Source of the DNA: Polyangiaceae bacterium
Lineage (GTDB): Bacteria > Myxococcota_A > Polyangia > Polyangiales > Polyangiaceae
DNA: 64,000 bases
Assembly (NCBI GenBank): GCA_046351395.1
Contig: JAXLYP010000017.1
Coordinates: 129,508 to 193,507 of the forward strand
Direction of reading: 5' to 3'
How positions within the stretch are numbered: the stretch's first letter is position 1; each line of letters opens with the position of its first letter. The notes below the pieces were generated by a model, which saw only the letters and a list, made by a program, of their open reading frames with translations, was not told where the DNA came from and made no database searches. Both the position numbers and the translations under genes were made by a program. Positions 4,642 to 61,668 of this stretch are shown piece after piece.

Positions 4642-4763
4642 CGGAAGAACGTAGGGGGATCGCTCCTCTCGGAGAAGAGAATCCTCGCGCTGGACCGGAC
4701 GACGTCAGCCCTCGTGGTGGCTCCGGAGCGAACGCGACGGGAGACTCGCGAGAACGACCCGCG

Positions 4764-7524: not shown

Positions 7525-7764
7525 CGCGGGCGGATCCTAGTGCACCGGCCGGTTTGAATCACCGGTGGATTCGCGAGAGTTTGGGCGGGAGGCGCGCGCC
7601 CGACGCGCGCACCGGGAGACGGCTGCTGACAATCTGAGGAGCACAGCGACGAGGCCGTGTGGATCGCACCTCAAATCGCGTGAATATCCCGTGATTCAGA
7701 CCGGTCGGTGCTCTCGTCGAGGGAGGGCGAACCTCGAGCGAAGATCCAAGCCCTCCGCGCGATC

Positions 7765-22654: not shown

Positions 22655-22958
22655 CGGGGTGCAGAGGCTACCGCAATGCGGAGCGGGCGCTCCCTTCGTC
22701 GATCTCCCTCGGTGTGCCGGGCTCCGAGCTGGCTCGAAGAAGCGTACGCGGGAGCGCGCGAAGGCGCTCGATCCTGCTTCGGCTTGGCTCGCGGAGGTCG
22801 AATGAGCGCGCCGAAGTCGCTCCACTCTGCAGCGGTTCCGCCGCCGAATTCGGGGAAGAGCAGCTGGCTCGTCAGGATGACGTCAATCCGAGTCGAGGCG
22901 GTCTCAAGAACTCATCAAGGCGCCGGATGAGTCGCCGCGTGAGCCGATCTGCGCTCTA

Positions 22959-23690
22959 GTGCTCGGCATGTCCGGGCCTGCGAGTGACCCCTTCGGACCT
23001 CTGGTCTTGGTGGTCGACGACGAACCCCAGCTCCGCAAGTTCCTCCGCGCGGCGCTGCTGAGCCACGGCTATCGACTCATCGAGGCGGAGTCGTGCGCGG
23101 GCGCGCTCGTGGAGGTGAAGACGCGCAACCCGGACGTCGTGCTCCTCGACCTCGGGCTCCCGGACGGGAGCGGCCTCGACCTCACGCGCACCCTCCGTCA
23201 GTGGTCGAAGACGCCGATCATCGTCATCAGCGCGCGTGGCAGAGAGGACGACAAAGTCGAGGCGCTCGACGCGGGCGCGGACGACTACCTGACCAAGCCG
23301 TTCGGTGTGAAGGAGCTGCTCGCGCGCATCCGCGTGGCGCTCCGGCACGTCGGCACGCTCGAGCCCGACGAGCCCGTCATCACGCTCGGAACGCTCGCGG
23401 TCGACCTCACGCGCCACGAGGTCCGGGTCGACGGCGCGCAGCAGCACCTCACGCCGCAGGAGTACAAACTCCTCGTCTACCTGCTGAACCACCGCGGTCG
23501 CGTCCTTACCCACCGCCAGATCCTGAAGGACGTCTGGGGGGCGGCCCACGCGTCTCAGACCCATTATCTGCGCGTCTACATGGCCCAGCTCCGCAGGAAG
23601 CTCGAGCGCGATCCGACCCGCCCGCGGATTCTCCTCACCGAGCCGGGCGTCGGCTACCGAGTGCGCGACGACCTCTCCGAAGCAGACTAA
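22959..23690 (+). CDS. kdpE: OmpR-family response regulator KdpE
   Basis: Receiver domain (LVVDDEP...D...LDLGLPDGSG...KTPIIVISAR) plus winged-helix (LTPQEYKLLVYL...GYRV). Located immediately 5' of kdpFABC. Confidence 0.9.
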   Translation: MLGMSGPASDPFGPLVLVVDDEPQLRKFLRAALLSHGYRLIEAESCAGALVEVKTRNPDVVLLDLGLPDGSGLDLTRTLRQWSKTPIIVISARGREDDKVEALDAGADDYLTKPFGVKELLARIRVALRHVGTLEPDEPVITLGTLAVDLTRHEVRVDGAQQHLTPQEYKLLVYLLNHRGRVLTHRQILKDVWGAAHASQTHYLRVYMAQLRRKLERDPTRPRILLTEPGVGYRVRDDLSEAD

Positions 23691-23932
23691 ACGAGGCGCA
23701 GCCTCGCGGATGCGCCCGCGATGGCGCGCTCCGGAGAGAGCGGCGAACGAGTCAGGGCGGAGTAGGCGCAGACACGCAACCGCACTCGAATGGCGAGACC
23801 GGGGCGATGCCGATCAAGCTACGCGTCTTGATGCCTTCTTGATCCGAAGTGTCGCCGCATTGACGCGCCTCAGACCGGCGCCCGTGCAGAATCGCACTGT
23901 CTTCGGAGGCGCCTCGCCGAGGCGAAACCCAA

Positions 23933-24012
23933 TGGACCTTCTCTACGTCGGCATCTCCGCCGCCTTTTTTGCGCTGACCTGGGGCCTCTACCGCCTCTTG
24001 GAAAAGCTCTGA
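23933..24012 (+). CDS. 26-aa hydrophobic single-TM peptide (KdpF-like paralogue?) directly upstream of kdpF
   Basis: atg gac ctt ctc tac gtc ... tga = MDLLYVGISAAFFALTWGLYRLLEKL. GAGG 9 nt upstream. Ends ...EKL like the adjacent KdpF (...PEKLQ). Confidence 0.3.
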
Positions 24013-24019
24013 GGTCGCC

Positions 24020-24112
24020 ATGTCCGCGCTCGTGATCGTCGGCGGTGTCCTATCCGCTGCGCTCCTCGTCTATTTGTTCGTCGCGCTGCTCGCCCCGGAG
24101 AAGCTCCAGTGA
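24020..24112 (+). CDS. kdpF: K+-transporting ATPase subunit F
   Basis: MSALVIVGGVLSAALLVYLFVALLAPEKLQ (30 aa). GAGGT 5 nt upstream of ATG. Stop overlaps kdpA GTG start (GTGA). Confidence 0.7.
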   Translation: MSALVIVGGVLSAALLVYLFVALLAPEKLQ

Positions 24113-25854
24113 CCACGCACGGCACCGTTACGCTGCTCGTCTTCGTCGGCGTCCTGCTGGGGCTCGCGTGGCCGCTCGGATCGTTCATCGCCGACGTGAT
24201 GGAGGGCAAGCCCGGCTGGATGGGGCGCCTGCTCGGCCCGATCGAGAGGCTCTTCTATCGCGCCGCTGGCGTCCGCTCGGAGGACGAGCAGACGCCTCGA
24301 CAGTACGCGCTCGCCGCGCTCGTGTTCAACGTGCTCGGCCTCCTCGTCGTCTATGGCCTCCAGCGGCTCCAGGCCTCGCTGCCGCTGAACCCGGACGGAA
24401 TGGCTGCCGTATCGCCCGAGGTGAGCTTCAACACCGCCGTCAGCTTCGCGTCGAACACGAACTGGCAGGCCTACGGCGGCGAGTCGACCATGAGCTACCT
24501 CACGCAGATGGCGGCGCTCGCGGTGCAGAACTTCCTCTCTGCGGCGACCGGTATCGCGGTGATGGTCGCGCTCGTCCGCGGCTTCACGCGCGCCGAGTCG
24601 AGGACCCTCGGGAGCTTCTGGGTCGATCTCACCCGGACGACGCTGTACGTCCTCGTCCCGCTGTCCTTCGTGTTCGCGCTCTTCCTCGTGAGCCAGGGCG
24701 TCGTCCAGACGTTCGACGGTCACGCGACCGCGCAGCTCGTCGAGCCGCTCACGCTGCAGGACGGGACGACGGTCACCGATCAGCTCATCTCCATGGGACC
24801 GGCCGCCTCCCAGATCGCGATCAAGCAGCTCGGGACGAACGGCGGCGGGTTCTTCAACGCGAACTCGGCGCACCCGCTCGAGAACCCGACGGCGCTCTCG
24901 AACTTCTTCGAGCTCGTCGCGATCCTCCTCGTCCCTGCGGCGCTCTGCTTCACGTTCGGGAAGATGGTGAGGGACCGCCGGCAGGGGAACACGCTCATCA
25001 TCGCGATGCTGGCGATCTTCGTCCCGCTCGCGGTGGTGTGCATCGCCTCCGAGCAGGCGGGCAACCCTGCGCTCCGCTCGCTCGGCGTCGACCAGCTGGC
25101 GAGCGCGTTCTCGTCCGGCGGCAACATGGAAGGCAAGGAGGTGCGGTTCGGCATCGCAGACAGTGGCCTCTGGGCCACGGCCACCACGGCGGCCTCGAAC
25201 GGCAGCGTCAACGCGATGCACGACAGCTTCACGCCGCTCGGCGGGATGGTCCCGATGGTGCTGATGCAGCTCGGCGAGGTCGTGTTCGGCGGCGTCGGCT
25301 GCGGCCTCTACGGCATCCTGATGTTCGCGGTCGTCGCCGTCTTCATCGCGGGCCTCATGGTCGGACGGACGCCCGAGTACCTCGGCAAGAAGATCGAGGC
25401 CTACGAGATGAAGATGGCGTCGCTCGTGGTCCTCTTCCCGTGCGCCGCCGTATTGGTCGGCACCGCGATCGCGTGCATCTCGAAGTCGGGGACGGAAGGG
25501 GTGCTCACGAACGCCGGCGCGCACGGCTTCAGCGAGATCCTCTACGCGCTCTCGTCCGGCTCGAACAACAACGGCTCCGCGTTCGGCGGGCTCACGGCGA
25601 GCGGACAGTTCTACTCGATCCTGATCGGCCTCTGCATGCTGATTGGCCGGTACTGGATCCTGATCGCGATCATCGCGCTGGCGGGTGCATTGGCCAGGAA
25701 GAAGCGCATCCCCATCAGTCCGGGGACGCTCCCGACGCACACTCCACTCTTCGTCGCGCTGCTCGTCGGCACGATCCTCATCGTCGGCGCGCTCACGTTC
25801 ATCCCGGCGCTCGCGCTCGGCCCGATCGTCGAGCACCTCGAGCTCCACGGGTAG
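24109..25854 (+). CDS. kdpA: K+-transporting ATPase subunit A
   Basis: 581 aa polytopic protein, MTTHGTVTLLVFVGVLLGLAWPLG..., typical KdpA length and composition. GTG start overlapping kdpF stop. Confidence 0.95.
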   Translation: MTTHGTVTLLVFVGVLLGLAWPLGSFIADVMEGKPGWMGRLLGPIERLFYRAAGVRSEDEQTPRQYALAALVFNVLGLLVVYGLQRLQASLPLNPDGMAAVSPEVSFNTAVSFASNTNWQAYGGESTMSYLTQMAALAVQNFLSAATGIAVMVALVRGFTRAESRTLGSFWVDLTRTTLYVLVPLSFVFALFLVSQGVVQTFDGHATAQLVEPLTLQDGTTVTDQLISMGPAASQIAIKQLGTNGGGFFNANSAHPLENPTALSNFFELVAILLVPAALCFTFGKMVRDRRQGNTLIIAMLAIFVPLAVVCIASEQAGNPALRSLGVDQLASAFSSGGNMEGKEVRFGIADSGLWATATTAASNGSVNAMHDSFTPLGGMVPMVLMQLGEVVFGGVGCGLYGILMFAVVAVFIAGLMVGRTPEYLGKKIEAYEMKMASLVVLFPCAAVLVGTAIACISKSGTEGVLTNAGAHGFSEILYALSSGSNNNGSAFGGLTASGQFYSILIGLCMLIGRYWILIAIIALAGALARKKRIPISPGTLPTHTPLFVALLVGTILIVGALTFIPALALGPIVEHLELHG

Positions 25855-25896
25855 GACCAAAGCTGAATCGAGTGCCTCTGGCACGGGAGCATTTTC

Positions 25897-27960
25897 ATGT
25901 CGACACAGGCTCGTCCACTGTTCGAGTCGGCGATTGTCCGCCGCGCCATCGGCGATGCGTTCGTCAAGCTCGACCCGCGCCGGATGATCAAGAACCCCGT
26001 CATGTTCGTCGTCGAGGTCGGGAGCTTCTTCACGACCGTGCTCGCCGTGCACGCCGCGGTCACGTCGAACGGCGAGTCTCCCGCGGGGTTCATCGCGGCG
26101 ATCTCCGTGTGGCTCTGGTTCACCGTGCTGTTCGCGAACTTCGCCGAGGCGATGGCCGAGGGACGGGGCAAGGCGCAGGCCGACGCGCTGCGGAAGGCGA
26201 AGAAGGACGTCCCGGCGAAGAAGCTCGAGGCGCCGAAGCGGGACGCGAAGTCGACCGAGGTGAGCGCGTCGCAGCTCAAGAAGGGCGACTATGTCCTGGT
26301 CGTCGCAGGGGAGTACATCCCCGGCGACGCCGAGGTGGTCGAGGGGGTCGCGTCGGTCGACGAGAGCGCCATCACGGGCGAGAGCGCGCCGGTCATCCGC
26401 GAGAGCGGCGGGGACCGGAGCGCCGTCACGGGCGGGACGCGCGTCCTCTCGGACTGGCTGATCCTCCAGATCTCCGCGAACGCAGGCGAGAGCTTCCTCG
26501 ACCGCATGATCGCGATGGTCGAGGGCGCGAAGCGGAAGAAGACGCCGAACGAGATCGCGCTCGACATCCTGCTCGCGAAGCTGACGATCATCTTCCTCCT
26601 CGCGACGTGCACGCTGCTCCCGTACTCGATCTACGCGGTCGCGTCGGCGGGCGCGGGCTCGCCGGTGCCGCTCACGATCCTCGTCGCGCTGCTCGTCTGT
26701 CTGATCCCGACCACGATTGGCGGTCTCCTCTCGGCGATCGGCATCGCGGGTATGGACCGCATGATCCAGGCGAACGTCATCGCGACCAGCGGCCGCGCCG
26801 TCGAAGCCGCCGGAGACGTCGACGTGTTGCTCCTCGACAAGACGGGGACGATCACGCTCGGGAACCGCCAGGCGACAGCGTTCATCCCGGCGAACGGCGT
26901 CTCCGAGCGCGAGCTCGCCGAGGCGGCCGAGCTCTCGTCGCTCGCCGACGAGACGCCCGAAGGCCGAAGCATCGTCGAGCTCGCGCGTCACAAGTTCCAG
27001 ATCGCGGAGAGAAAGGTCGAAGGCGCCGTGTTCGTCCCGTTCACGGCCCAGACCCGGATGAGCGGCGTGGACGTCGGCGGCGTGAGCATCCGCAAGGGCG
27101 CCGCCGACGCCGTCAACAAGTACGTCGCGGCGCAGGGCCACACCGTCTCGGCCGAGGTGAAGGACGCGGTCGCGACCGTCGCCAAGAAGGGCGGAACGCC
27201 GCTCGTGGTCGCGAACGGCAAGGGCGTGCTCGGCGTCGTCGCCCTGTCCGACATCGTGAAGGAGGGGATCAAGGAGCGCTTCGGCGAGATGCGGCGGATC
27301 GGGATCAAGACCGTGATGATCACGGGCGACAATCCGCTCACCGCCGCCGCCATCGCGGCCGAGGCGGGCGTCGACGACTTCCTCGCGGAGGCGACGCCCG
27401 AGGCGAAGCTCTCGATGATCAAGGACTACCAGAGGAAAGGACACCTCGTCGCGATGACGGGCGACGGGACGAACGACGCGCCGGCGCTCGCGCAAGCGGA
27501 CGTGGCGGTCGCCATGAACACGGGCACGCAGGCGGCGAAGGAAGCCGGCAACATGGTCGATCTCGACTCGAACCCGACGAAGCTCCTCAGCATCGTCGAG
27601 ATCGGCAAGCAGATGCTCATGACGCGCGGCTCGCTGACGACGTTCTCGATCGCGAACGACATCGCCAAGTACTTCGCGATCATCCCCGCCGCGTTCGCCG
27701 GGACCTATCCGGTGCTGCGGAAGCTCGACGTCATGCGGCTCCACTCGGCCCAGAGCGCCGTGCTCTCCGCGGTCATCTTCAACGCGCTCATCATCGTCGC
27801 GCTCATCCCGATCGCGCTCCGCGGCATCAAGTACAAGCCAGCGCCCGCGTCCGCTCTGCTCCGACGCAACCTGCTCGTCTACGGCCTCGGCGGCGTGGTG
27901 CTCCCGTTCCCGTTCATCAAGCTCATCGACATGCTGCTCGCGGCCCTCCACCTCGTGTGA
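25897..27960 (+). CDS. kdpB: K+-transporting P-type ATPase subunit B
   Basis: DKTGTIT phosphorylation motif. TGDN ([11 protein letters not shown]). [10 protein letters not shown] hinge. 687 aa. Confidence 0.95.
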
Positions 27961-28016
27961 GCTCCGCGGACAGACCTCGGCTGAAAGGAGCGCCTCCGGC
28001 GCGCTCGGTGAATCCC

Positions 28017-28664
28017 ATGAAGACACTCCGACCGGCCCTCGTCCTGCTCGCGATCTTCACGATCGTCTGTGGGCTCCTCTATCCCCTCGCCGTGACGGGC
28101 GCCGCGAACGTGTTCGCGAAGCAGCGCATGGGGAGCCTCGTCGTCGCGGCCAACGGACAGATCGTCGGCTCGAGGCTGATTGGACAGTCCTTCACGAACC
28201 CTGGCCACTTCTGGGGCCGTCCGTCCGCGACGAGCCCCCAGCCCTACAACGCGGGCAGCTCGAGTGGCTCGAACCTCGGACCATCGAACACCGCGCTCCA
28301 CGACGCCATCCGTGATCGTGTGGCGGCGCTGAAGGCCGCGGATCCGGATCAAGCGGGTCCGGTGCCGATCGATCTCGTCACCGCGTCCGGCAGCGGCCTC
28401 GATCCGGACATCAGCCCGGCTGCGGCCTACTATCAGGTGCACCGGGTCGCGATCGCGCGCGGCCTCGACGTGTCGAAGGTGCGCGCGCTCGTCGACGCGA
28501 ACGTCGAGGGCCGGTTCCTCGGGATCCTCGGCGAGCCGCACGTGAACGTGCTGCTCTTGAACCAGGCGCTCGACGTTCTCGCAGGCGGCGCGCCCGCTCC
28601 GGTGCCGACGCCCGATCAATCCGCGAGCGCGGCGCCCGAGACCTCGGCGAGCGCGGCCGAGTAG
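28017..28664 (+). CDS. kdpC: K+-transporting ATPase subunit C
   Basis: MKTLRPALVLLAIFTIVCGLLYPLAVTGAANVFAKQ... GSGLDPDISP. About 215 aa. Confidence 0.9.
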   Translation: MKTLRPALVLLAIFTIVCGLLYPLAVTGAANVFAKQRMGSLVVAANGQIVGSRLIGQSFTNPGHFWGRPSATSPQPYNAGSSSGSNLGPSNTALHDAIRDRVAALKAADPDQAGPVPIDLVTASGSGLDPDISPAAAYYQVHRVAIARGLDVSKVRALVDANVEGRFLGILGEPHVNVLLLNQALDVLAGGAPAPVPTPDQSASAAPETSASAAE

Positions 28665-28670
28665 TTGGCG

Positions 28671-31385
28671 ATGGACGGCCGCCCCGATCCCGAGGAGCTC
28701 CTCGATCGCCTCAGGGCGAACGAGGCGCGGGTCGGCAAGGGCACGCTCAAGATCTTCTTCGGCGCGGCGCCCGGCGTCGGCAAGACGTTCGCGATGCTGG
28801 AGTCGGCCCGCCGCCTCGAGAAGGAGGGGTGGACGTCGTGGTCGGCTGCGTGGAGACGCACGGTCGAGCCGAGACGGCGGCGCTCGTCGAGGGCCTGGAG
28901 GCGCTGCCGATGCGCTCTGTGGAGTACCGCGGCGCGACGCTCCGCGAGTTCGATCTCGACGGCGCGTTGAAGCGCAAGCCGGGCATCCTGCTGCTCGACG
29001 AGCTCGCGCACACGAACGCGCCGGGAGCCTGCACAAGAAGCGCTGGCAGGACGTCATGGATCTGCTCGACGCGGGGATCGACGCCACACGACGCTGAACG
29101 TGCAGCACGTCGAGAGCCTGAACGACGTCGTGCGCGAAGTGACGCAGATCCGGGTCCGCGAGACGGTGCCGGATCGGGTGCTCGAGCGCGCGGACGAGAT
29201 CGAGCTCGTCGATCTTCCGCCCGATGATCTCCTGCAGCGATTGTCCGAGGGCAAGGTCTACCTGGCCGAGCAGGCCGCGCGCGCGAAGACCGGTTCTTCC
29301 GGCGCGGGAACCTCCTCGCGCTCCGGGAGCTCGCCCTCCGTCAGACGGCGCAGCACGTCGACAGCGACGTACGCGAGTACCGGACCGAGCACGCGATCGC
29401 GACGACGTGGGCGTCGGGTGAGCGGATCCTCGTCGCGGTCGGGCCCGCGCCAGCCTCTGCGGGTCTGGTCCGCGCCGCGCGGAGGATGGCCGATCGGCTT
29501 CGGTCGCCCTGGATCGCGGTCTCGGTGGAGTCGACCACGGCCGCGCTCCCAGCCGCGGCGCGCGCGCGGCTCGATGCGAACCTCGGGCTCGCGGCGGATC
29601 TCGGCGCGACCGTCATCCGCCTCGCCAGCGACAGCCTCGCGCGCGCGCTGATCGAGTGCGCGGCGAAGCAAAACGTCACGCGGATCCTGATCGGCAAGCC
29701 GACGCACTCACGCCTCCGCGACTTCGTGCGCGGGTCGCTCCTCGACGCGGTGGTGCGGGGCAGTGGCAACATCGATGTACTCGTCACGTCGGGCAGCGAC
29801 GCGGAGGAGCCTCGACCGAGCGGCGATCCCGGCTCGCGCGCCGCCGCGCCCGGCAGCCCGCTCGCCCTCGCCCCCTACGCGATCGGGACGCTCGCGATCC
29901 TCGCGGTGACGGGGCTCGGCATGACGGTGAGGGCGCGCCTCGATCTCGCCGACGTCGTCATGCTCTACCTCCTCGCGATCGGCGCCGTCGCGATGCGGTT
30001 CGGGCGCTGGCCGAGCGTGGTCGCGGCCGCGCTCGCGGTCGCCGCGCTCGACTTCTTCTTCGTGCCTCCGTTCTACGAGTTCGTCGTCACGGACGCGCGG
30101 CACGTCTTCACGTTCGCGATGATGTTCGTCGTGGGCGTGCTCTTGAGCGGCCTGATGCTCCGGATCCGGCGGCAGGAGCGCGCGGCGTGGCTCCGCGCCG
30201 AGCGAACCACGATGCTCTACGCGCTGACGCGCGCGATCGCGGGGGGCGTCGACCGCGGAGGAGATCGCAGGCATCGTGAGTCGACACGTCGAGACGACCC
30301 TGGACTGCGACGCCACGGTGTGGCTGGCGACCGGCGAGCGATCGAAGCTCGCGCGCATCGACCCGGACGCGCCCGTCGACCCGCAAGACGAGATCGTCGC
30401 AGCGTGGGTGCTCGAGCATGGGAAAATCGCTGGGCTCGGTACCGACACGCTCGCAGGAGCCAAGGTGTTCGCCGCGCCGATGGTCTCCGCGACGGCGACG
30501 TGGGGCGTCGTCGCGCTCCGGCCGCGCGTCCAAGGGGCGCTCGTCGATCGCGAGCAGAGGGACCTCCTCGAGGCGTTGCTGCGTCAGGCCGGACTGGCGA
30601 TCGAGCGGGCTCACCTCGCGGAGGAGGCGCGCCTGGCGGCGCTGCGCGCGAAGACGGAGGAGCTCCGAGCGTCCCTGCTGTCCGCGGTGTCGCACGATCT
30701 TCGGACGCCGCTCGCCGCGATCACTGGCGCCGCGACGTCTCTCCTGGACGCCTCCGAGCGCTTCGCCGAGCCGCAGCGCGTGGAGCTCCTCAGCGCCATC
30801 TGCGAGGAGGCCGATCACCTCGAGCGCCTCCTCACGAACCTCCTCGACATGACGCGGATCGACTCGGGTGGGATCGCGGTGAAGCGGGACTGGGTCCCGA
30901 TCGAGGAGGTCGTGGGATCGGCGCTCGCGCGCGTCGAGAAGACCTTGGCGGGCCATCCGCTCGCGATCGATCTGCCCGCGGATCTCCCGCTCGTCGCGGT
31001 CGATCCGGTGGTGTTCGGGCAGGTCTTCGTGAACCTGCTCGAGAACGCCGCGAAGTACACGCCGGCCGGCTCGGCGATCGAGATCGCGGGGCGCCGAACG
31101 GAGCGCGCGGTCGAGATCGACGTGGCGGATCACGGCCCCGGCATCCCCGAGGCGATCCAGAAGCGCGTCTTCGAGAAGTTCTACCGCGGCGCTGGCGAGC
31201 GGGCGGGCGGGGTAGGCCTCGGCCTCGCCATCTGTCGCGGGATCGTCGAGGCCCACGGCGGGACCATCTCAGTCACGAACCGGCCTGAAGGCGGGGCGCT
31301 GTTTCGGATCTCGCTCCCGCTCCTCGACGAAGCGCCGCCCGTGCCATCCGAGCCGCCGGCCCCCGAGACGAAGGACGCGACGTGA
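28671..31385 (+). pseudogene. kdpD: kdpD sensor histidine kinase, copy 1, disrupted by five single-base indels (pseudogene or homopolymer sequencing errors)
   Basis: The KdpD reading frame is split over five ORFs (28665, 28829, 29100, 29486, 30276). Comparison with the intact paralogue 33847..36591 pins the indels: -1 in gaggggtgg (~28830), -1 in gccgggagcc (~29030), -1 in gacgccacac (~29085), -1 in aagaccgg (~29290), +1 in gcggggggc (~30247). Net -3, so the C-terminal HisKA/HATPase part returns to the initial frame. Confidence 0.85.
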
Positions 31386-31533
31386 GAGAAGAAGGAGACC
31401 TCGTATTGGTCATCGAAGCCGACAGGACGCTTCACTCATGCGTTCTTGACACCGTTGGGGCCCATCTTGAACCCGCTCTGCTTCGGCGCTCGCTAAACAG
31501 CGGACATCCGTCTCCGAGACTGGAGCACCCATC

Positions 31534-32889
31534 ATGTTCGAGACTCTCGTTTGCAGTCCGCTCGCCAGAGGACTCCTCGTCGCTGGTTGGCTCTTGATCG
31601 CGCCGTCGCTCGCGCACGCGCAGCCGGTGTCACCGGTCACGCCCGAGCAGCCCGCGGAGCCCCCCCGGCCCGCGCAGCCCGCCGAGCCGGTTTCGCCGCC
31701 GGCGCAGCCGGCGCCAGCTGGCGAACCACCGAAGGGCGACCATGCGCCCGTCAATCAGGCCGAGGCTCCTCCGAAGAGGTGGTACGAAAACATCGAGCTC
31801 TCGGCGTTCATCGACGCGTATGTCTCTTTGAACACGAACTTCCCCCAGCCCGAAGGCCCGACTCCCACCGGCGGTGGAAACAGCTTTCGGGCCTACGACG
31901 TGAACAACGGCCTGAGCCTCCATTGGATAGGCGCCGACTTGTCCTACGCGCCAGAACCGATCGGAGCCACGCTGGGCGTTCGATTTGGACCCTCTGCAAC
32001 CATTTACGCGGCGTCCGACGCGGCCATCCATCTCGAGAACATCAAGCAGGCGTTCGCGACACTGAAGGTCAAGCAGTTTACGCTCGACTTTGGTAAGTTC
32101 GACACGTTCATCGGGGCCGAGGTCGCGGACAGTCAGTTCAACATGAACTACACGCGCGGCGTCCTCTACTGGTACGCTCAGCCTCTGTTCCATACCGGAT
32201 TCCGTGTCCAGTACGACTTCGGTGAGCTCGCGACGCTCCGAGCGATCGTGGTCAATGGCTGGAACGACACGCTCGACGACAACGCGGGGAAGAGCGGCGG
32301 CCTCCAGTTGACGATCAAAGGAAAGGACAAAATCACTGCATCGCTCGGCTACATCATCGGTCCGGAGCAGGCGGACACGGCGGTCGTCAGCTGCCCGGCG
32401 GACACGGCCTTCACTGGCGGTAAGTGCGTGGCGGCGCGCGGCGAGCCGGGCGGCGATTTCGACGTCGCGGTCGACGGAGCGAACAGCCGGCTCAAGCACA
32501 TCGTCGACCTCGTGGTCGATGCGAAGCCTGTCGAGCCCCTCCGCATCCTCGCCAATGGCGACTTCGGTGCCGAGCAGCAGCCGGGGGGCGACTACGCGCT
32601 GTGGTATGGCGCGGCCCTCGCGGTGGGCGTGACCCCCGCGAAGATCTGTTCACTCGCGCTGCGCGGGGAGGCCTACCGCGACGCCCAGGGCTACACGACG
32701 GGCGTCGGGACCCCGATCACGTTCTTCACCGGCACCTTGACCGCGAACCTCAGCCCGGTCGATCAGCTGTCTGTGTTCTTCGACGCGCGGCTCGATGGGG
32801 CGACGCAGAGTGTCTTCCAGAAGCGGATCGAAGAGAGCGCGCCCCTGCAATTCACGACGACGCTCGGCACGATCGTGAAGACCAACTGA
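31534..32889 (+). CDS. Outer-membrane porin-like beta-barrel protein (signal peptide, Pro-rich N-terminal stretch)
   Basis: MFETLVCSPLARGLLVAGWLLIAPSLAHA signal. PVSPVTPEQPAEPPRPAQPAEPVSPPAQP linker. Alternating amphipathic strands (LSLHWIGADLSYAP, TLGVRFGPSATIYAA, FTLDFGKFDTFIG...). Sits between the two kdpCD copies. Confidence 0.6.
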   Translation: MFETLVCSPLARGLLVAGWLLIAPSLAHAQPVSPVTPEQPAEPPRPAQPAEPVSPPAQPAPAGEPPKGDHAPVNQAEAPPKRWYENIELSAFIDAYVSLNTNFPQPEGPTPTGGGNSFRAYDVNNGLSLHWIGADLSYAPEPIGATLGVRFGPSATIYAASDAAIHLENIKQAFATLKVKQFTLDFGKFDTFIGAEVADSQFNMNYTRGVLYWYAQPLFHTGFRVQYDFGELATLRAIVVNGWNDTLDDNAGKSGGLQLTIKGKDKITASLGYIIGPEQADTAVVSCPADTAFTGGKCVAARGEPGGDFDVAVDGANSRLKHIVDLVVDAKPVEPLRILANGDFGAEQQPGGDYALWYGAALAVGVTPAKICSLALRGEAYRDAQGYTTGVGTPITFFTGTLTANLSPVDQLSVFFDARLDGATQSVFQKRIEESAPLQFTTTLGTIVKTN

Positions 32890-33130
32890 AAGCAACTCGC
32901 ATCTTGATCCCTTCTCGACCCAATGGTGCGCCACCTTGACGACGCCGAGACGGGCGAGATCGCAGAACCCCGTCCTCTCCCGAGGCCCCGCCGAAGGGCG
33001 CTAGCTAGGGAAACCATGGTTCGATTGCGCGTCTGCATCGCCGCCGCCCTTTTCTGGGGGGCTGACCTGGGGCCGCAATTGCTCGGGGAAAAAGAGGGCT
33101 CGATATGCTGCGCGCGGCCCTCCACCTCGT

Positions 33131-33844
33131 GTGAGAGCCGCGGTCGCGCCGCGGCTCGGAGCCTCGGCAGAAGGGCGCGCCTCGGGCGCGTCGGTGAATC
33201 CCACAAGGACACTCCGCCCCGCGCTCGTGCTCCTCGCGATCTTCACGATGGTCTGCGGCCTCCTCTATCCTCTCGCCGTGACGAGCGCCGCGAACGTGTT
33301 TGCGAAGCAGCGCCAAGGCAGCCTCGTGGTCGCGGCGAACGGGCAGATCGTCGGATCGAAGCTCGTCGGCCAGTCGTTCACGAAACCCGGTCATTTCTGG
33401 GGCCGCCCATCGGCGACGAGCCCCGCGCCCTACGACGCAGGCAGCTCGAGCGGCTCGAACCTCGGCCCGTCCAACCCCGCGCTCCGCGACGCGATCCGAG
33501 AGCGCGTGCAGGCGCTGAAGGCCGCCGATCCGGAGCAGGCGGGTGAGGTCCCGGTCGATCTCGTGAGTGCGTCCGGGAGCGGCCTCGATCCGGACATCAG
33601 CCCGGCTGCGGCCTACTACCAGGTGCACCGGGTCGCGATCGCGCGCGGCCTCGACGAGTCGAAGGTGCGCGCGCTCGTCGACGCGAATGTCGAGGGCCGG
33701 TTCCTCGGGATCTTCGGCGAGCCGCACGTCAGCGCGCTGCTCTTGAACCAGGCGCTCGATGCGCTCGCCGGCGGAGCGTCCGCGGTCGTCCTCGAAGGGG
33801 CGGCGAGCGCGCGGCACGAGACGTCCGCGAGCGCGGCCGAGTAG
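33131..33844 (+). CDS. kdpC: KdpC paralogue (copy 2) lacking the canonical ATG (ATG->ACA); only an upstream in-frame GTG giving a 20-aa N-terminal extension
   Basis: Copy 1 has ggtgaatcccATGaagacactccg. Copy 2 has ggtgaatcccACAaggacactccg. The rest (TLRPALVLLAIFTMVCGLLYPLAVTSAANVFAKQ ... ) is conserved. Confidence 0.6.
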   Translation: MRAAVAPRLGASAEGRASGASVNPTRTLRPALVLLAIFTMVCGLLYPLAVTSAANVFAKQRQGSLVVAANGQIVGSKLVGQSFTKPGHFWGRPSATSPAPYDAGSSSGSNLGPSNPALRDAIRERVQALKAADPEQAGEVPVDLVSASGSGLDPDISPAAAYYQVHRVAIARGLDESKVRALVDANVEGRFLGIFGEPHVSALLLNQALDALAGGASAVVLEGAASARHETSASAAE

Positions 33845-33846
33845 TC

Positions 33847-36591
33847 GTGATGGACGGCCGCCCCGATCCCGAGGAGCTCCTCGACCGCGTGAAGGCGGAC
33901 GAGGCGCGCGTCGGACAGGGCGCGCTCAAGATCTTCTTCGGCGCGGCGCCCGGCGTCGGCAAGACGTTCGCGATGCTGGAGTCGGCCCGCCGCCTCGAGA
34001 AGGAGGGGGTGGACGTCGTGGTCGGCTGCGTGGAGACGCACGGTCGAGCCGAGACGGCGGCGCTCGTCGAGGGCCTGGAGGCGCTGCCGATGCGCTCTGT
34101 GGAGTACCGCGGCGCGACGCTCCGCGAGTTCGATCTCGACGGCGCGTTGAAGCGCAAGCCGGGCATCCTGCTGCTCGACGAGCTCGCGCACACGAACGCG
34201 CCGGGGAGCCTGCACAAGAAGCGCTGGCAGGACGTCATGGATCTGCTCGACGCGGGGATCGACGTCCACACGACGCTCAACGTGCAGCACGTCGAGAGCC
34301 TGAACGACGTCGTCCGAGAGGTGACGCAGGTTCGGGTGCGCGAGACCGTGCCGGACCGAGTGCTCGAGCGCGCGGACGAGATCGAGCTCGTCGATCTTCC
34401 GCCGGACGATCTCCTGCAGCGGCTGTCCGACGGGAAGGTCTACCTCGCCGAGCAGGCCGCGCGCGCCAAGGAGCGCTTCTTTCGCCGGGGCAACCTCCTC
34501 GCGCTCCGCGAGCTCGCGCTCCGGCAGACCGCGCAGCACGTCGACAGTGACGTGCGCGAGTACCGCAAGGAGCACGCGATCGCGACGACGTGGGCGTCGG
34601 GCGAGCGGATCCTCGTCGCGGTCGGCCCATCACCGGCGTCGGCGGCGCTGGTCCGCGCCGCGCGCCGTATGGCGGATCGGCTCCGCGCGCCCTGGATCGC
34701 CGCCTCCGTCGAGTCGACCACGGCCGCGATGACCCCTCGGGCGCGTGCGCGGCTCGACGCGAACCTCGGGCTCGCCGCGGATCTCGGCGCCGCCGTGCTC
34801 CGGCTCACGAGCGACGACATCCCTCGCGCCCTGATCGACTGCGCCGCGAAGCAGAACGTCACGCGCATCGTGATCGGGAAGCCGACCCACTCGCGGCTCC
34901 GCGACTTCGTGCGGGGATCGCTGCTCGACGCGGTCGTGCGGGGCAGCGGGAACGTCGACGTGCTGGTCACTTCGGGGACCGACGACGAGACCCGGCCGAC
35001 GGAGGAGCCACGGGCGCGGCCGGACCCGCCCAAACCTCTGGCGCTCGCGCCCTACGCGCTCGCGACGCTCGGGATCCTCGCCGTGACGGGGCTCGGCGTG
35101 TCGATCCGCGCTCGGCTCGACCTCGCGGACGTCGTCATGCTGTACCTCCTCGCGATCGGCGCGGTCGCGATGCGGTTCGGTCGGTGGCCGAGCGTCTTCA
35201 CGGCGGCGCTCGCGGTGGGCGCGCTCGACTTCTTCTTCGTGCCCCCGCTCTACGAGCTCGTCGTCACCGACGCTCGTCACGTCTTCACGTTCGCGATGAT
35301 GTTCGTGGTCGGCGTGCTCCTCAGCGGCCTGATGCTGCGGATCCGAAGGCAGGAGCGGGCCGCTTGGCTGCGCGCCGAGCGCACCGCGATGCTCTACGCC
35401 CTGACGCGGGCCATCGCCGGCGCGTCGAGCGCGGAGGAGATCGCTCGGGTCGTCCGCCGCCACGTGGAGACGACCCTCGAGTGCGACGCCGCCGTGTGGC
35501 TCTCGGGCGGAGCGCCCGAGTCGATCGCTCCCGGGACGGCCGATCGGTCGCGCCTCGTGCGCGTCGACGCGGACAGAGCGGTCGAAGCGCAGGACGAGAC
35601 GGTCGCCTCCTGGGTGCTCGAGCATGGGCGGGTCGCGGGGCTCGGCACCGATACGCTCGCGGGCGCGAAGGTGTTCGCTGCGCCCATGGCGTCGGCGACG
35701 GCGACCTGGGGCGTCATCGCCTTGCGGCCGCGTGGGGACGACGCGCGAATCGACCGCGAGCAGCGAGACCTGCTCGACGCGCTGCTGCGCCAGGCGGGCC
35801 TCGCGATCGAGCGCACGCGCCTCGCCGAGGAGGCGCGCGTCGCCGCGCTCCGCGCGAAGACGGAGGAGCTCCGAGCGTCCCTCCTCTCGGCGGTGTCCCA
35901 CGATCTTCGCACGCCGCTCGCGGCGATCACGGGCGCCGCGACTTCGCTGCTGGACGCGTCCGAGCGCCTCGACGAGCCGCAGCGCGTGGAGCTCCTGACG
36001 GCGATCTGCGACGAGGCGGATCACCTCGAGCGGCTCCTCACGAACCTGCTCGACATGACGCGGATCGACTCGGGAGGCGTCGCCGTGAAGCGCGAGTGGG
36101 TCCCGATCGAAGAGGTCGTCGGCTCGGCGCTCGCGCGCGTGGAGAAGAGCCTCGCGGGGCGTCCGCTCGAGATCCACCTCCCCGCCGATCTGCCGCTCGT
36201 CGCGGTCGATCCCGTCGTGTTCGGCCAGGTCTTCGTGAACCTCCTCGAGAACGCCGCGAAGTACACGCCCGATGGATCACCCATCGAGGTCGGTGCGCGC
36301 CGAGCGGACGGCGCCATCGAGATCGACGTGGCCGATCATGGGCCCGGGATCCCCGAGGCCGCCCAGAAGCGCGTGTTCGAGAAGTTCTACCGAGGGGTTG
36401 GAGAGCGACCGGGCGGCGTGGGGCTGGGCCTCGCGATCTGTCGCGGGATCGTCGAGGCGCACGGCGGCGCCATCGCGGTCACGAACCGGCCCGGGGGTGG
36501 CGCGCTCTTCCGGATCTCGCTGCCGCTCGTCGAGTCTCCCCCCGTGCCCTCCGAGCCCCCACCGCCGGGCGATGCGGAGGCCGCGCGATGA
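33847..36591 (+). CDS. kdpD: Sensor histidine kinase KdpD (intact; KdpD N-terminal sensor/Usp, four TM helices, GAF-like, HisKA, HATPase)
   Basis: 914 aa. GAAPGVGKTFAML P-loop. TM block. H-box SAVSHDLRTPLAAITGA. N/G boxes (LLENAAKYTP, GVGLGLAICRGIVEAHGG). Confidence 0.9.
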   Translation: MMDGRPDPEELLDRVKADEARVGQGALKIFFGAAPGVGKTFAMLESARRLEKEGVDVVVGCVETHGRAETAALVEGLEALPMRSVEYRGATLREFDLDGALKRKPGILLLDELAHTNAPGSLHKKRWQDVMDLLDAGIDVHTTLNVQHVESLNDVVREVTQVRVRETVPDRVLERADEIELVDLPPDDLLQRLSDGKVYLAEQAARAKERFFRRGNLLALRELALRQTAQHVDSDVREYRKEHAIATTWASGERILVAVGPSPASAALVRAARRMADRLRAPWIAASVESTTAAMTPRARARLDANLGLAADLGAAVLRLTSDDIPRALIDCAAKQNVTRIVIGKPTHSRLRDFVRGSLLDAVVRGSGNVDVLVTSGTDDETRPTEEPRARPDPPKPLALAPYALATLGILAVTGLGVSIRARLDLADVVMLYLLAIGAVAMRFGRWPSVFTAALAVGALDFFFVPPLYELVVTDARHVFTFAMMFVVGVLLSGLMLRIRRQERAAWLRAERTAMLYALTRAIAGASSAEEIARVVRRHVETTLECDAAVWLSGGAPESIAPGTADRSRLVRVDADRAVEAQDETVASWVLEHGRVAGLGTDTLAGAKVFAAPMASATATWGVIALRPRGDDARIDREQRDLLDALLRQAGLAIERTRLAEEARVAALRAKTEELRASLLSAVSHDLRTPLAAITGAATSLLDASERLDEPQRVELLTAICDEADHLERLLTNLLDMTRIDSGGVAVKREWVPIEEVVGSALARVEKSLAGRPLEIHLPADLPLVAVDPVVFGQVFVNLLENAAKYTPDGSPIEVGARRADGAIEIDVADHGPGIPEAAQKRVFEKFYRGVGERPGGVGLGLAICRGIVEAHGGAIAVTNRPGGGALFRISLPLVESPPVPSEPPPPGDAEAAR

Positions 36592-36670
36592 CCGAGGGGC
36601 GCGAGTGGCGCCCCCGCGAAGGGCGCTCGAGGTTGCAGACGAGCGTCGGACGATCTGCGAGCCTCGCGTC

Positions 36671-37195
36671 ATGCGACTCCAACTCCTCAAGCTCGCGGCC
36701 AAGCGGCCGCTCGTCGCGCTCTTCGGAGCGCTCCTCCTCGTAGGTGCCGCGGTCGCGGCGCCGATCGCGCTGGTCGCGTCGAGCGGCGGTTCGGAGGCGA
36801 GCGCGGCGAACCCGCGGTCCCTGATCGGCCGCCTGTGGCTCGATCGCTACCCGGGCAAGCCGCGCGACGAGGTCGATCTGATCCTCTTCTTCGGCAGCGG
36901 GTTCGGCGTCTACGAGCACGGGTCGCGCTACAAGGCGTCGATGGAATTCTTCGAGTTCGAGCGGCAAGGGGGCGCCGTCGAGGTGCACTTCTTCCAGGAC
37001 GACTCGCGCATGAAGACGAAGTTCGAGATCTCCGCGTGCTCGGACGATCGGAACTTCGACCTTTGCCTCGACTTCAAGAACTCCCCGCGCGGTCCCAAGC
37101 GCTACTACTCGTGGGGACGCGACGGTGACGACGCCGCGCACGTCCCCTGGGCGGAGGATTGGAAGCGAGGCGCCGAGGCGCGCGTGACGCGGTGA
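36671..37195 (+). CDS. Hypothetical secreted protein
   Basis: MRLQLLKLAAKRPLVALFGALLLVGAAVAAPIALVAS signal-like N-terminus. 174 aa. No known domain. Confidence 0.5.
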   Translation: MRLQLLKLAAKRPLVALFGALLLVGAAVAAPIALVASSGGSEASAANPRSLIGRLWLDRYPGKPRDEVDLILFFGSGFGVYEHGSRYKASMEFFEFERQGGAVEVHFFQDDSRMKTKFEISACSDDRNFDLCLDFKNSPRGPKRYYSWGRDGDDAAHVPWAEDWKRGAEARVTR

Positions 37196-37235
37196 CCGGC
37201 TTGACGCGCCTCGCGCGGAGGGCGACGTCAGCCGC

Positions 37236-38018
37236 ATGACGGATCGAGTCAGCATCGAGCAGCGCGGCCACGTCCTCCTCATCGGGATCCAGCGCCCAGA
37301 GAAGCGCAACGCGTTCGACCTCGCGATGATCGACGCCCTGGGCGCCGCGTACCAGCGCCTCGGGGACGACCCCACGATCCGCGCCGGCGTCGTCTTCGCG
37401 CACGGCGCCCACTTCTCCGCGGGCCTCGAGCTCACGGAGGTGGGGCCGGCGGTCCTCGAGCACGGCCCGAAGGCGCTCGGCGGCGCGCACGCGTACGATC
37501 CGTTCGCGATGTGGGGCCCGCGCGTCCCGAAGCCCGTCGTGATCGCGCTCCAGGGCATCGCGTTCACGCTGTCGATCGAGCTCGCGCTCGCGAGCGACAT
37601 CGTCGTCGCGGCGACGGACGTCCGCTTCCGCCAGCTCGGCTGAGGTCGGTCGCGGTATCGTGCCGTTCGGCGGCGCCACGATGCGCGCCCCTCGGCACCT
37701 CGGCGAAGGAACGCGATGCGCTTCCTCCTCACCGGCGAGGAGTTCGGCGCGGAGGTCGCGCTGCGCATCGGCCTCGTGCAGGAGGTCGTCCCCGTCGGTC
37801 AGCAGGTCGAGCGGGCCGCCGAGATCGCCGCGCTCATCGCCAAGCAATCCCCGACCGCGGTGCGCACCACGCTCGAGAACGCGCGCCTCGAAATGTCCGA
37901 GGGCACGGACAGCGCGCGCGCTCACCTCCTCGACACGCTGCCCAAGATCATGTCGAGCGAGGACGCGCGCGAGGGTGTGCAGAGCTTCATCGAGCGCCGC
38001 GAAGCCGTGTTCAAGTGA
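37236..38018 (+). pseudogene. Enoyl-CoA hydratase/isomerase (crotonase) family gene interrupted by a compensating +1/-1 frameshift pair about 60 nt apart
   Basis: Frame 0 ends at TGA 37641. The conserved motif ...EVGRGIVPFGGATMRAPRHLGEG is readable only in the +1 frame 37642-37705. The gene then resumes in frame 0 (MRFLLTGEEFGAEVALRIGLVQEVVP...). Confidence 0.7.
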
Positions 38019-61561: not shown

Positions 61562-61668
61562 GGCCGCCGCGTAGCACTGCCTTTCAGAAAGAGCATTGCG
61601 GCGACCGTCGTACTCCAATACTCACCTATGGGAAGTATGGGCGACGCCGTGGATGGAGGAAGACGACG

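Follow-up and report, generated by a model that had tools for sequence, protein, structure and literature searches.

Probable in-place duplication of a kdp operon, with later loss within the downstream copy, in a Polyangiaceae MAG

In this study, a 64,000-nt stretch of DNA (the window) from one uncultured Polyangiaceae MAG was analysed, and we observed that 27926-31385 and 33100-36591 are collinear direct copies of part of a kdp locus. The whole kdp operon was probably duplicated in place within this lineage, the downstream copy later losing about 3.9 kb, with indels in the upstream kdpD that are either recent or erroneous. The features concerned are as follows.

22959-23690, +, kdpE-like response regulator of the OmpR family (Pfam Response_reg and Trans_reg_C)
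23822-24005, +, operon 5' region of copy 1, upstream of kdpF, homologous to 32898-33092
23826-23843, +, direct-repeat box of copy 1, TCTTGAT-N4-TCTTGAT
23859, +, -35-like ATTGACG of copy 1, 15 nt after the box
23932-24012, +, gene for a 26-aa hydrophobic peptide, MDLLYVGISAAFFALTWGLYRLLEKL, directly upstream of kdpF
24020-24112, +, kdpF (TIGR02115 and PF09604 above cut-off)
24109-25854, +, kdpA (NCBI MFO0616290.1, KdpA)
25897-27960, +, kdpB (NCBI MFO0616291.1, KdpB)
28017-28664, +, kdpC1, 215 aa from an ATG start (PF02669, 237 bits; NCBI MFO0616292.1)
28671-31385, +, kdpD1, a 905-aa KdpD readable only after correcting five 1-nt indels
28744-29095, +, 352-nt tract of copy 1, equal to kdpD2 at about 33923-34277 except for three 1-nt deletions
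31534-32889, +, BBP2 (OmpL-like) outer-membrane beta-barrel porin (PF07642, 183 bits; NCBI MFO0616296.1)
32898-33092, +, relic operon 5' region of copy 2, 195 nt between the porin and the kdpB tail
32902-32919, +, box of copy 2, TCTTGAT-N4-TCTCGAC
32935, +, CTTGACG of copy 2, 15 nt after the box
from 33016, +, decayed leader-peptide ORF of copy 2
33100-33134, +, orphan kdpB 3' tail (DMLRAALHLV and stop), 33 of 35 nt matching 27926-27960, TGA included
33194-33844, +, kdpC2, 216 aa from GTG (PF02669, 230 bits; NCBI MFO0616297.1, starting at 33194)
33850-36591, +, kdpD2, intact 913-aa (913/914) sensor kinase (Pfam; NCBI MFO0616298.1)

Extent of the duplicated unit

The direct repeat reported in the initial annotation was borne out by pairwise alignment and by a repeat search, which returned eight collinear segments with a spacing of 5176-5206 and 77-100% identity. 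In the full alignment, homology begins at 27926/33100 and ends with the stop codons of kdpD (31385/36591); identity per 100 columns is 65-100%, and similarity is absent outside both repeat ends. The proteins of the two copies share about 85% (KdpC) and 87% (KdpD) identity, dN/dS between copies being 0.156 for kdpD and 0.215 for kdpC, and the earlier view that the copies arose by duplication rather than convergence is upheld at a protein divergence of about 13-15%. Chance similarity was ruled out by 3.5 kb of collinear coding homology with a dS of about 0.45. Additionally, KdpD1 and KdpD2 are closer to one another than to any other match in 5.8 billion proteins, which argues that the duplication is lineage-specific; the nearest outside sequence (P0007) is equidistant, at 76.8% to KdpD1 and 76.2% to KdpD2. 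The kdpA product is 59-78% identical to the KdpA of relatives.

The unit first proposed, consisting of the kdpB tail, kdpC and kdpD, turned out to be too small, as copy 2 also retains a degenerate operon 5' region. The local alignment of 32898-33092 with 23822-24005, a segment that also covers most of the leader peptide gene, scored 65, whereas no other part of the window exceeded 35 and the shuffle maximum was 31, and 139 of the 173 aligned columns are identical. The arrangement of box and TTGAC is conserved in alignments with two relatives only (L083 and L002), and the role of the 5' region as promoter and KdpE box is a putative one; a generic sigma-70 scan found no promoter. The 26-aa leader peptide matches no Pfam or NCBIfam family, and its gene keeps the same position in four related loci (L083, L002, L003 and L004). 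The orphan kdpB remnant was confirmed, its template being the last 35 nt of kdpB. Retention of the 5' region argues that the whole leader-kdpFABC-kdpD operon was duplicated and that the kdpB tail stems from a later deletion; judged from the sequence, this tail would be a scar at the right edge of an internal deletion of about 3.9 kb that took kdpF, kdpA and most of kdpB.

According to the preferred reading, the module of promoter region, 26-aa leader peptide gene, kdpF, kdpA, kdpB, kdpC and kdpD would have been duplicated in place; the kdp-associated BBP2 porin gene lies between the two operon copies. The downstream copy would later have lost a stretch that starts at the end of the leader peptide gene and stops 35 nt short of the kdpB stop codon, so that relic promoter and leader, kdpB tail, kdpC2 and kdpD2 remain, with a predicted deletion junction at 33093-33099, and a 352-nt stretch would have been homogenised between kdpD1 and kdpD2. 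A second porin copy or remnant, expected from simple tandem duplication, was not found, which calls for one or more additional deletions or for a non-tandem mechanism.

Fate of the duplicated kdpC and kdpD genes

In kdpC2, ACA stands at 33203-33205 where kdpC1 has its ATG, the ORF being otherwise intact, and an in-frame GTG (33194 in copy 2) is present in both copies three codons upstream of the lost ATG. To call this gene start-less was an overstatement: the NCBI start is this GTG, and the product passes the KdpC equivalog cut-offs (NF001454, 233.6 bits vs a cut-off of 178), suggesting that kdpC2 uses, or can use, the GTG as its start. In relative-rate tests kdpC2 evolves about 4-6 times faster than kdpC1, with lineage-specific replacements in KdpC1 and KdpC2 of 4 vs 14 (p = 0.03), 2 vs 12 (p = 0.013) and 2 vs 11 (p = 0.02). 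Constraint on kdpC2, detached from the pump genes, is relaxed rather than absent.

The product of kdpD2 displays the full KdpD set of domains (KdpD N-terminal, Usp, DUF4118, GAF, HisKA and HATPase_c). In kdpD1 the frame changes by -1 at 28825 (G5 to G4), 29022 (G4 to G3), 29083 (T lost) and 29283 (GG to G), and by +1 at 30241 (G5 to G6); after five 1-nt edits the gene is full-length with zero stop codons. Compared with kdpD2 there is also an in-frame gap of 30 nt at 30334 in kdpD1, and NCBI annotates the C-terminal part of kdpD1 (30264-31385) as a separate 373-aa 'ATP-binding protein'. Lineage-specific replacements number 38 in KdpD1 vs 39 in KdpD2 (p = 1), and purifying selection appears to have acted with equal strength on both paralogs for practically all of the time since they were duplicated. 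With a dN/dS of 0.16 and a replacement count equal to that of KdpD2, kdpD1 is not an old pseudogene. Of the split of functional parts described earlier, the interrupted kdpD of copy 1, the intact kdpD of copy 2 and the loss of the kdpC2 ATG thus stand; 'broken' holds for kdpD1 only as far as its five frame changes go.

These indels are either very recent or assembly consensus errors, and we lean slightly towards error over recent mutation. Codons 31-150 of kdpD show 0-1 differences between the copies, while dS in the flanks is 0.45-0.6, and the 352-nt tract there reflects either gene conversion or a repeat-linked consensus artefact. The 13% of kdpD1 that would otherwise equal kdpD2 holds three of the five indels (binomial p = 0.018), and four of the five are located in G runs. 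Also on the side of error, at least one other gene in the window (ECH) carries paired indels, as a kinase gene probably does, and the contig of this MAG is 246 kb long, while the same locus in a short-read k-mer assembly is a 2.3-kb contig only. On the other side, full-length domain matches were obtained for kdpA, kdpB, kdpC1, kdpC2, kdpD2 and the porin, and for most of the remaining genes tested, and five indels in one 2.7-kb gene therefore far exceed the window background; moreover, true pseudogenes are expected among redundant duplicates.

It is quite possible, if not the reading we favour, that kdpD1 is a genuine, very recently inactivated pseudogene, in which gene conversion with kdpD2 in the 5' part was followed by slippage indels in G runs. 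With the same reserve, the redundancy may be in the course of being resolved, pump and kdpC1 being kept upstream and the sensor kdpD2 downstream. The frame changes are present in the deposited sequence, where NCBI annotates the fragments separately, the large neighbouring genes are intact so that lesions are concentrated in the redundant copy, and complementary relaxation is seen in kdpC2. However, amino-acid replacements are not in excess in KdpD1, the corrected kdpD1 frame is free of stop codons, paired indels occur in other genes of this MAG too, and the tract that kdpD1 shares with its paralogue has three indels and zero substitutions. Since substitutions are several-fold commoner than indels in bacterial mutation spectra, the last pattern is unexpected.

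Alternative origins of the second copy

We regard it as unlikely that only the kdpB tail, kdpC and kdpD were copied behind an unrelated porin in an old event followed by complementary degeneration, leaving a dead kdpD1 and a dead, start-less kdpC2. Strong nucleotide similarity does begin at the kdpB tail, kdpC2 has lost its ATG and kdpD1 is frameshifted, but upstream of the tail there is renewed homology, to the operon 5' region, a GTG lies in frame in kdpC2, which also has a KdpC annotation and an equivalog-level score, and kdpD1 evolved under the same constraint as kdpD2. Moreover, BBP2 porins, here with a signal peptide and a Pro-rich linker, are regular kdp neighbours: they adjoin kdp genes in two related loci (L002 and L003) and in Bacteroidota loci, so that the description of a porin beside kdp as unusual was not upheld. 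The association is frequent rather than universal, a BBP2 match lying within reach in only 7 of 30 fetched kdpA-containing loci.

A chimeric join or mis-scaffolding of two related metagenome populations, with kdp loci about 13% apart, is likewise improbable. The source is a MAG, and a search of 5.8 billion proteins gave no further genome or assembly with orthologues of both copies (best outside match 79%), so that the architecture rests on a single MAG; the one 352-nt tract identical between the copies is also what a mis-polished or collapsed repeat would give. Nevertheless, an assembler would have had no overlapping sequence at which to switch, copy 2 opens not with a full kdpB but with a leader region that has diverged and the scar of a deletion, and the copies differ in the manner of paralogues under selection, with equal branches. 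In an independent assembly (k=31) of run SRR14234089, Logan contig L001 matches 30647-32924 at 100%, spanning the kdpD1 3' end, the porin (100% identity) and the relic leader up to its 27th nt, box included, and it begins exactly at a 30-mer common to both copies (30647 and 35853), where the assembly branches. Furthermore, the kdpE-like regulator, which is 62-69% identical to the regulator after kdpD in L002, L003 and L032 and 66% identical to the KdpE of L082, sits upstream of the operon, not downstream of kdpD, and a search of 20-40 kb gave no second kdpE-like segment. As kdpE follows neither kdpD copy, unlike in L002, L003, L082 and L083, where it follows kdpD, both copies share the same derived state.

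Horizontal acquisition of kdpC2-kdpD2 is very improbable: second kdp sensor systems elsewhere do come on mobile elements, such as the staphylococcal SCCmec and ACME (PMC7322546), but the two KdpD proteins are mutually closest, GC content is uniform, no mobile-element genes were found flanking copy 2, and this copy keeps the leader and kdpB tail of its own lineage.

Comparison with known systems and proposed regulation

Like the canonical kdpFABC-kdpDE locus of the Escherichia coli type, this locus consists of the families KdpF (TIGR02115), KdpA, KdpB, KdpC (PF02669), KdpD, with KdpD/Usp N-terminal, DUF4118, GAF and HisKA/HATPase_c domains, and an OmpR-type regulator. In L002, L082 and L083, the closest relatives, the order is canonical and kdpE overlaps the stop of kdpD, whereas here kdpE lies upstream, an extra 26-aa peptide gene precedes kdpF, a porin lies inside the locus, and a second module follows that lacks the pump (relic leader, kdpB tail, kdpC2 and kdpD2). 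In kdp loci of the Bacteroidota Chryseobacterium (L009) and Flavisolibacter (L014) and of a Myxococcales MAG (L003), a PF07642 porin likewise adjoins kdp genes on the same strand, and in L003 it stands 95 nt upstream of leader-kdpF-kdpA, compared with 126 nt from porin to relic leader here; their porin separates single-copy genes, in contrast to the two paralogous operon copies of this locus.

Two KdpD sensors per genome are also known from staphylococci, in which second KdpDE systems occur on SCCmec and ACME and the loss of one copy has been attributed to cross-talk avoidance (PMC7322546). Those systems carry their own kdpE and pump genes on mobile elements, whereas the second copy here comes from local duplication, has neither kdpE nor pump genes, and is the sister of the resident copy. 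The locus also resembles generic birth-and-death of tandem duplicates with gene conversion, in its direct repeats separated by a few kb, the partial deletion of one copy, a tract of zero synonymous differences within diverged paralogues and asymmetric relaxation of one duplicate; the only peculiarity here is the indels inside the homogenised tract, which are more typical of an assembly problem. The locus is a case of ordinary gene-family evolution, with nothing mechanistically distinctive.

Under the favoured duplication, the single upstream-encoded KdpE would be fed by KdpD2, and also by KdpD1 if intact, and may activate the box of direct repeats in front of kdpF and, to a lesser degree, the relic box that follows the porin; the porin itself may provide outer-membrane passage. 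If this proposed regulation is true, kdpC2-kdpD2 would be a K+-limitation-inducible, self-reinforcing sensor module.

Extent and probable origin of the kdp duplication

The source record is the MAG 'Polyangiaceae bacterium' at NCBI, the window lies within a 246,456-nt contig, and GC across the locus is even, at about 0.65-0.75. Repeat search of the window returned eight collinear direct-repeat segments with a spacing of 5176-5206 and identities of 77-100%, and full alignment showed homology that begins at 27926/33100, continues without a break and ends at the kdpD stops (31385/36591), with none past them. Both analyses recovered the direct repeat that the initial annotation had described. All components of the locus belong to well-known families by profile cut-offs, and the main features are as follows.

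Features of the kdp locus (window coordinates)
22959-23690, + strand: OmpR-type regulator gene (kdpE), by Pfam
24020-24112, + strand: kdpF, by TIGR02115
28017-28664, + strand: kdpC1, full-length KdpC by Pfam
31534-32889, + strand: BBP2 porin gene, by PF07642
33131/33194-33844, + strand: kdpC2 ORF, full-length KdpC by Pfam
33847/33850-36591, + strand: kdpD2, complete KdpD by Pfam

Exact look-ups identified the NCBI proteins for KdpA (MFO0616290.1), KdpB (..291), KdpC (..292), the porin (..296), the second KdpC (..297), KdpD (..298) and an MFS transporter (..301), and no Rfam match was observed between 22.5 and 37.5 kb of the window.

The orphan kdpB remnant reported at the start of copy 2 is present, as 33100-33134 agrees with the final 35 nt of kdpB at 33 positions, TGA included (translation DMLRAALHLV*). 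The duplicated unit, previously taken to comprise the kdpB tail, kdpC and kdpD only, is larger, because the operon 5' region also occurs in copy 2: the 195-nt interval that separates the porin stop (32889) from the kdpB tail (33100) is homologous to it. With the query trimmed so as not to overlap the kdpB tail, 32898-33092 aligns to 23822-24005, the stretch directly preceding kdpF, at a local score of 65 and with 139 of 173 columns identical, against 35 for the next-best segment in the whole window on either strand and at most 31 in all of 1000 shuffles. This homology argues that copy 2 is the remnant of an entire second operon. A deletion equivalent to about 24006-27925 (kdpF, kdpA and kdpB minus 35 nt) apparently fused the leader to the kdpB tail, and on sequence grounds the tail is to be regarded as the scar of this deletion, not as a boundary of the duplication. 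The full duplicated unit covers about 23822-31385, and the starts of the copies are 9076 nt apart.

Among 5.8 billion proteins, the best matches of KdpD1 (the frame-corrected copy-1 sensor) were KdpD2 of copy 2 (87%), followed by the Logan-assembled homologues P0007 (79%) and P0008 (68%). In a neighbour-joining tree built without the homogenised N-terminus, KdpD1 and KdpD2 were sisters with equal branches, and P0007 was 76.8% and 76.2% identical to them; this sister relationship with an equidistant outgroup points to a lineage-specific, local duplication and not a foreign acquisition, and horizontal acquisition is judged unlikely. The copies are in direct orientation and collinear, and their sensors are mutual nearest relatives, as expected of a local tandem-type duplication. 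Since dS between the copies reaches 0.45 for kdpD and 0.41 for kdpC, the duplication is not recent. The nearest loci in a species-level genome scan belonged to a Polyangiaceae MAG (L002, KdpD 65%) and a Myxococcales MAG (L003, 57%), and exact look-ups of KdpD2 on contigs gave no match.

An independent assembly also supports part of the path between the copies. The Logan contig L001 from run SRR14234089, for which an accession search found no paper, matches 30647-32924 at 100% and extends from the 3' end of kdpD1 across the porin into the relic leader, of which it holds the first 27 nt with the box. Its left end is a 30-mer present at both 30647 and 35853, in agreement with the predicted unique intervals; because this 30-mer is common to both copies, it is the very point at which a k=31 graph has to branch when the reads contain both. 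Copy 2 does not open at a point of sequence overlap; it opens with a leader that has diverged and with the scar of a deletion, a start that no assembler can invent. The position of kdpE gives a further argument. In all close relatives kdpE overlaps or follows the kdpD stop, and the P0007 contig and the relative locus L083 have the canonical kdpD-kdpE order, whereas here kdpE lies upstream of the operon, unlinked from either kdpD copy. No kdpE remnant was found after kdpD1 or kdpD2, other than five residues (VLVIE) after kdpD1, which are too short to count, and no kdpD remnant was found in front of kdpE. Both copies therefore have one derived state, an argument for placing them in a single genome. 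A chimeric assembly is judged unlikely in view of the missing overlap at the copy-2 start, the branching of L001 and the derived lack of a downstream kdpE that the copies have in common.

Operon 5' region and leader peptide

A direct repeat, TCTTGAT-N4-TCTTGAT at 23826 in copy 1 and TCTTGAT-N4-TCTCGAC at 32902 in copy 2, has TTGACG at a distance of exactly 15 nt behind it in both copies (23826-23865 and 32902-32941, + strand), so that the putative relic promoter behind the porin keeps the first repeat and TTGAC, with two changes in the second repeat. A promoter activated by KdpE, an OmpR-family regulator, would be expected to bind the regulator and to carry direct repeats that are phased by about 11 bp, abut a -35 element and are conserved upstream of the operon. 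Judged by its sequence, the element is a candidate site for an activator of the OmpR/KdpE type, placed against a -35 element. In our alignment of operon 5' regions (A1), the repeat and TTGACG also precede, with variation, the kdp operons in L083 and L002, and they are not evident upstream of kdp in L003 or the relative locus L004. The boxes of L083 and L002 are visible by alignment only, as a simple regular expression found no match in the relatives, and searching the two leader regions for generic sigma-70 promoters and for terminators gave nothing useful.

Immediately upstream of kdpF, a 26-codon ORF (23932-24012, + strand) encodes the hydrophobic peptide MDLLYVGISAAFFALTWGLYRLLEKL. A 26-aa peptide gene occupies the same place in L083 (5284-5361), L002 (5239-5316), L003 (17602-17679) and L004 (4831-4908), with the consensus MD[LF][LV]Y[VF]…TWG[LF]…L.E[KNR][LV] in Polyangiaceae, Myxococcales and Nitrospiraceae MAGs. 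The peptide matched no family in Pfam or NCBIfam, and its copy-2 counterpart at 33016 is decayed (MVRLRVCIAAALFWGADLGPQLLGEKE…). Possible identities are a small membrane peptide that is associated with Kdp and has escaped recognition, and a leader peptide; this conserved, unannotated gene may be of wider interest than the duplication.

Constraint on the sensor and subunit copies

KdpD2 is certainly a complete sensor kinase, as one 914-aa ORF displays the KdpD N-terminal, Usp, DUF4118, GAF, HisKA and HATPase_c domains (Pfam) in order. kdpD1 is readable only with five frame changes, with which a codon-position GC Viterbi scan concurs; its lesions are five 1-nt indels only (G5->G4, G4->G3, T lost, GG->G and G5->G6), and NCBI annotates a 373-aa fragment of it (30264-31385) as 'ATP-binding protein'. 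The five corrections yield a stop-free 905-aa protein with all kinase motifs, whose full-length identity to KdpD2 is 87%. dN/dS between kdpD1 and kdpD2 is 0.156, and a Tajima-type relative-rate test with three outgroups counted 38 vs 39, 31 vs 28 and 28 vs 29 lineage-specific replacements in KdpD1 and KdpD2 (p = 0.8-1), and therefore KdpD1 is constrained as much as KdpD2. No sign of the relaxed selection expected in a pseudogene, whether replacement excess, stops after correction or a dN/dS approaching 1, was observed in kdpD1. The earlier description of kdpD1 as broken holds for the five frame changes in the sequence, and an old complementary split of functions between the copies gains no support for kdpD, however the indels are read.

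Two readings of these indels were weighed. We lean slightly towards assembly consensus errors. The 352-nt tract 28744-29095, 13% of the gene, is identical to kdpD2 except for indels and holds three of the five (binomial p = 0.018), with no substitutions alongside; the gene as a whole has no replacement excess. Both patterns are typical of residual consensus error where short reads lack unique placement, and the MAG contig here is 246 kb long versus 2.3 kb in the independent k-mer assembly of SRR14234089. The same reading is favoured by the enoyl-CoA hydratase gene 1 kb downstream, with two compensating indels about 70 nt apart, and by the Ser/Thr kinase gene at 4705-7524, where third-position GC shifts frame without a stop. 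Against it, most genes tested are intact, and five indels in one gene are far above the window background. A real and very recent inactivation of kdpD1, to which we give a little under an even chance, would be expected in a redundant duplicate. A long-standing pseudogene should show excess replacements, and KdpD1 has none. In the mutation spectra of bacteria, neither indels without substitutions nor an old pseudogene without replacement excess is expected from real mutation. kdpD codons 31-150 differ at 0-1 nt, with flanking dS of 0.45-0.6, as in gene conversion; a mis-polishing artefact would give the same picture, and if the tract was truly converted, three indels and zero substitutions have arisen in it since. 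When Logan proteins were searched for an independent fragment spanning the +1 site at 30241, which falls in a predicted unique k=31 interval of 1286 nt, the NCBI fragment was the only return. The case is also cautionary, since MAG frameshifts clustered in a paralogue-identical stretch need read-level support before they are called pseudogenisation.

kdpC2 scores 230 bits with PF02669 (profile positions 1-181 of 182), 233.6 bits with NF001454 (cut-off 178) and 200.8 bits with TIGR00681 (cut-off 152.55), and thus passes the NCBIfam equivalog level. It had been described as start-less, which is too strong: the ancestral ATG is now ACA, but an in-frame GTG at 33194, three codons upstream and common to both copies, opens an intact 216-codon KdpC ORF and is the putative translation start used by NCBI for its KdpC annotation. 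The gene is not in an operon with kdpA and kdpB, as the 35-nt kdpB tail alone precedes it and kdpFAB lies 5 kb upstream, beyond kdpD1 and the porin. dN/dS between kdpC1 and kdpC2 is 0.215, and the relative-rate counts for KdpC1 and KdpC2 are 4 vs 14, 2 vs 12 and 2 vs 11 (p = 0.03, 0.013 and 0.02), a rate for kdpC2 about 4-6 times that of kdpC1. It is fair to call kdpC2 relaxed and possibly on the way out; the gene either supplies a spare subunit or is decaying.

Porin, neighbouring genes and working of the locus

The porin matches PF07642 at 182.7 bits (profile positions 2-337 of 339), and its translated N-terminus MFETLVCSPLARGLLVAGWLLIAPSLAHAQ reads as a putative signal sequence. A porin beside kdp genes is not unusual: in L002 a BBP2 porin lies next to them on the opposite strand, after kdpE, in L003 it has the same strand as leader-kdpF-kdpA and precedes them by 95 nt, and in Bacteroidota kdp loci it stands between kdpC and kdpD. 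With BBP2 porins in seven of the 30 kdpA-containing loci examined, the porin is a recurrent accessory of such loci, and its position next to the leader in copy 2 may go back to the ancestral state. If leader-kdpFABCD-porin had simply been copied in tandem, a porin would be expected after kdpD2. Neither a second porin or remnant there nor homology between the sequences 3' of kdpD1 and kdpD2 was found (best score 27, within background), which would call for a further deletion or for a mechanism other than tandem copying.

Several neighbouring genes were also noticed. Directly after kdpD2, an ORF at 36668-37195 (+) has coding-like GC3 and the hydrophobic N-terminus MRLQLLKLAAKRPLVALFGALLLVGAAVAAP…, with no match in Pfam or NCBIfam. 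The enoyl-CoA hydratase gene (37188-38015, +) carries indels of about +1 near 37637 and -1 near 37707 that scramble the active-site motif; the motif EVGRGIVPFGGATMR is in another frame, and the original frame meets TGA at 37641-37643. This gene is either a further pseudogene or a further consensus error. The Ser/Thr kinase ORF 4705-7524 (-) is open for 939 codons, with the third-position GC signal changing frame at about 6620-6320, and NCBI lists what lies downstream as a protein of its own (513 aa). In several homologues the kinase part is matched by an N-terminal extension of 340-380 aa (fused), and one homologue stands alone, which is suggestive of a gene that is probably a frameshifted fusion. 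In L083 (ENA contig_131773_np1212), the nearest long-contig relative, genes are split or fused at 3744-4933, 7213-9807 and 13064-13423: an ELFV dehydrogenase is in two pieces, an 864-aa 'kdpB' runs into kdpC, and kdpE is cut to its C-terminal domain. Such genes are typical of long-read indel errors, and frameshifts in MAGs of this lineage call for caution. A large DUF2169 and pentapeptide-repeat protein is encoded divergently from kdpE (19868-22825, -), and an MmeI-like type II restriction-modification fusion (MmeI_Mtase, Eco57I, MmeI_TRD) at 58941-61583 (-).

In the most likely working of the locus, the upstream-encoded KdpE would activate the box-bearing promoter that precedes kdpFABC-kdpD1 and its leader peptide gene. 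kdpC2-kdpD2 may still be driven by the relic promoter, which would make the second sensor inducible by its own pathway, and KdpD1 would be a second sensor kinase if its indels are errors. That all parts are functional is doubtful: two diverged KdpD would then act on one KdpE, with KdpD2 and an alternative KdpC expressed from the relic promoter as a positive-feedback module induced by K+ limitation, apart from the pump operon, and with the kdpD1 indels being errors. In staphylococci, second kdp sensor systems are known and are carried by mobile elements (PMC7322546); here, in contrast, the second set comes from local duplication. A literature search on this kdp architecture found nothing specific.

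Observed in a single MAG, the locus is a known system in a new architecture, which ordinary duplication, deletion and homogenisation produced. Its importance is modest. It prompts one to ask whether some Polyangiaceae have two KdpD sensors acting on one KdpE, and it offers a clean, datable case of an operon duplicate being dismantled, with pump genes lost, the sensor fully constrained, the orphaned subunit gene relaxed and the copies locally homogenised.
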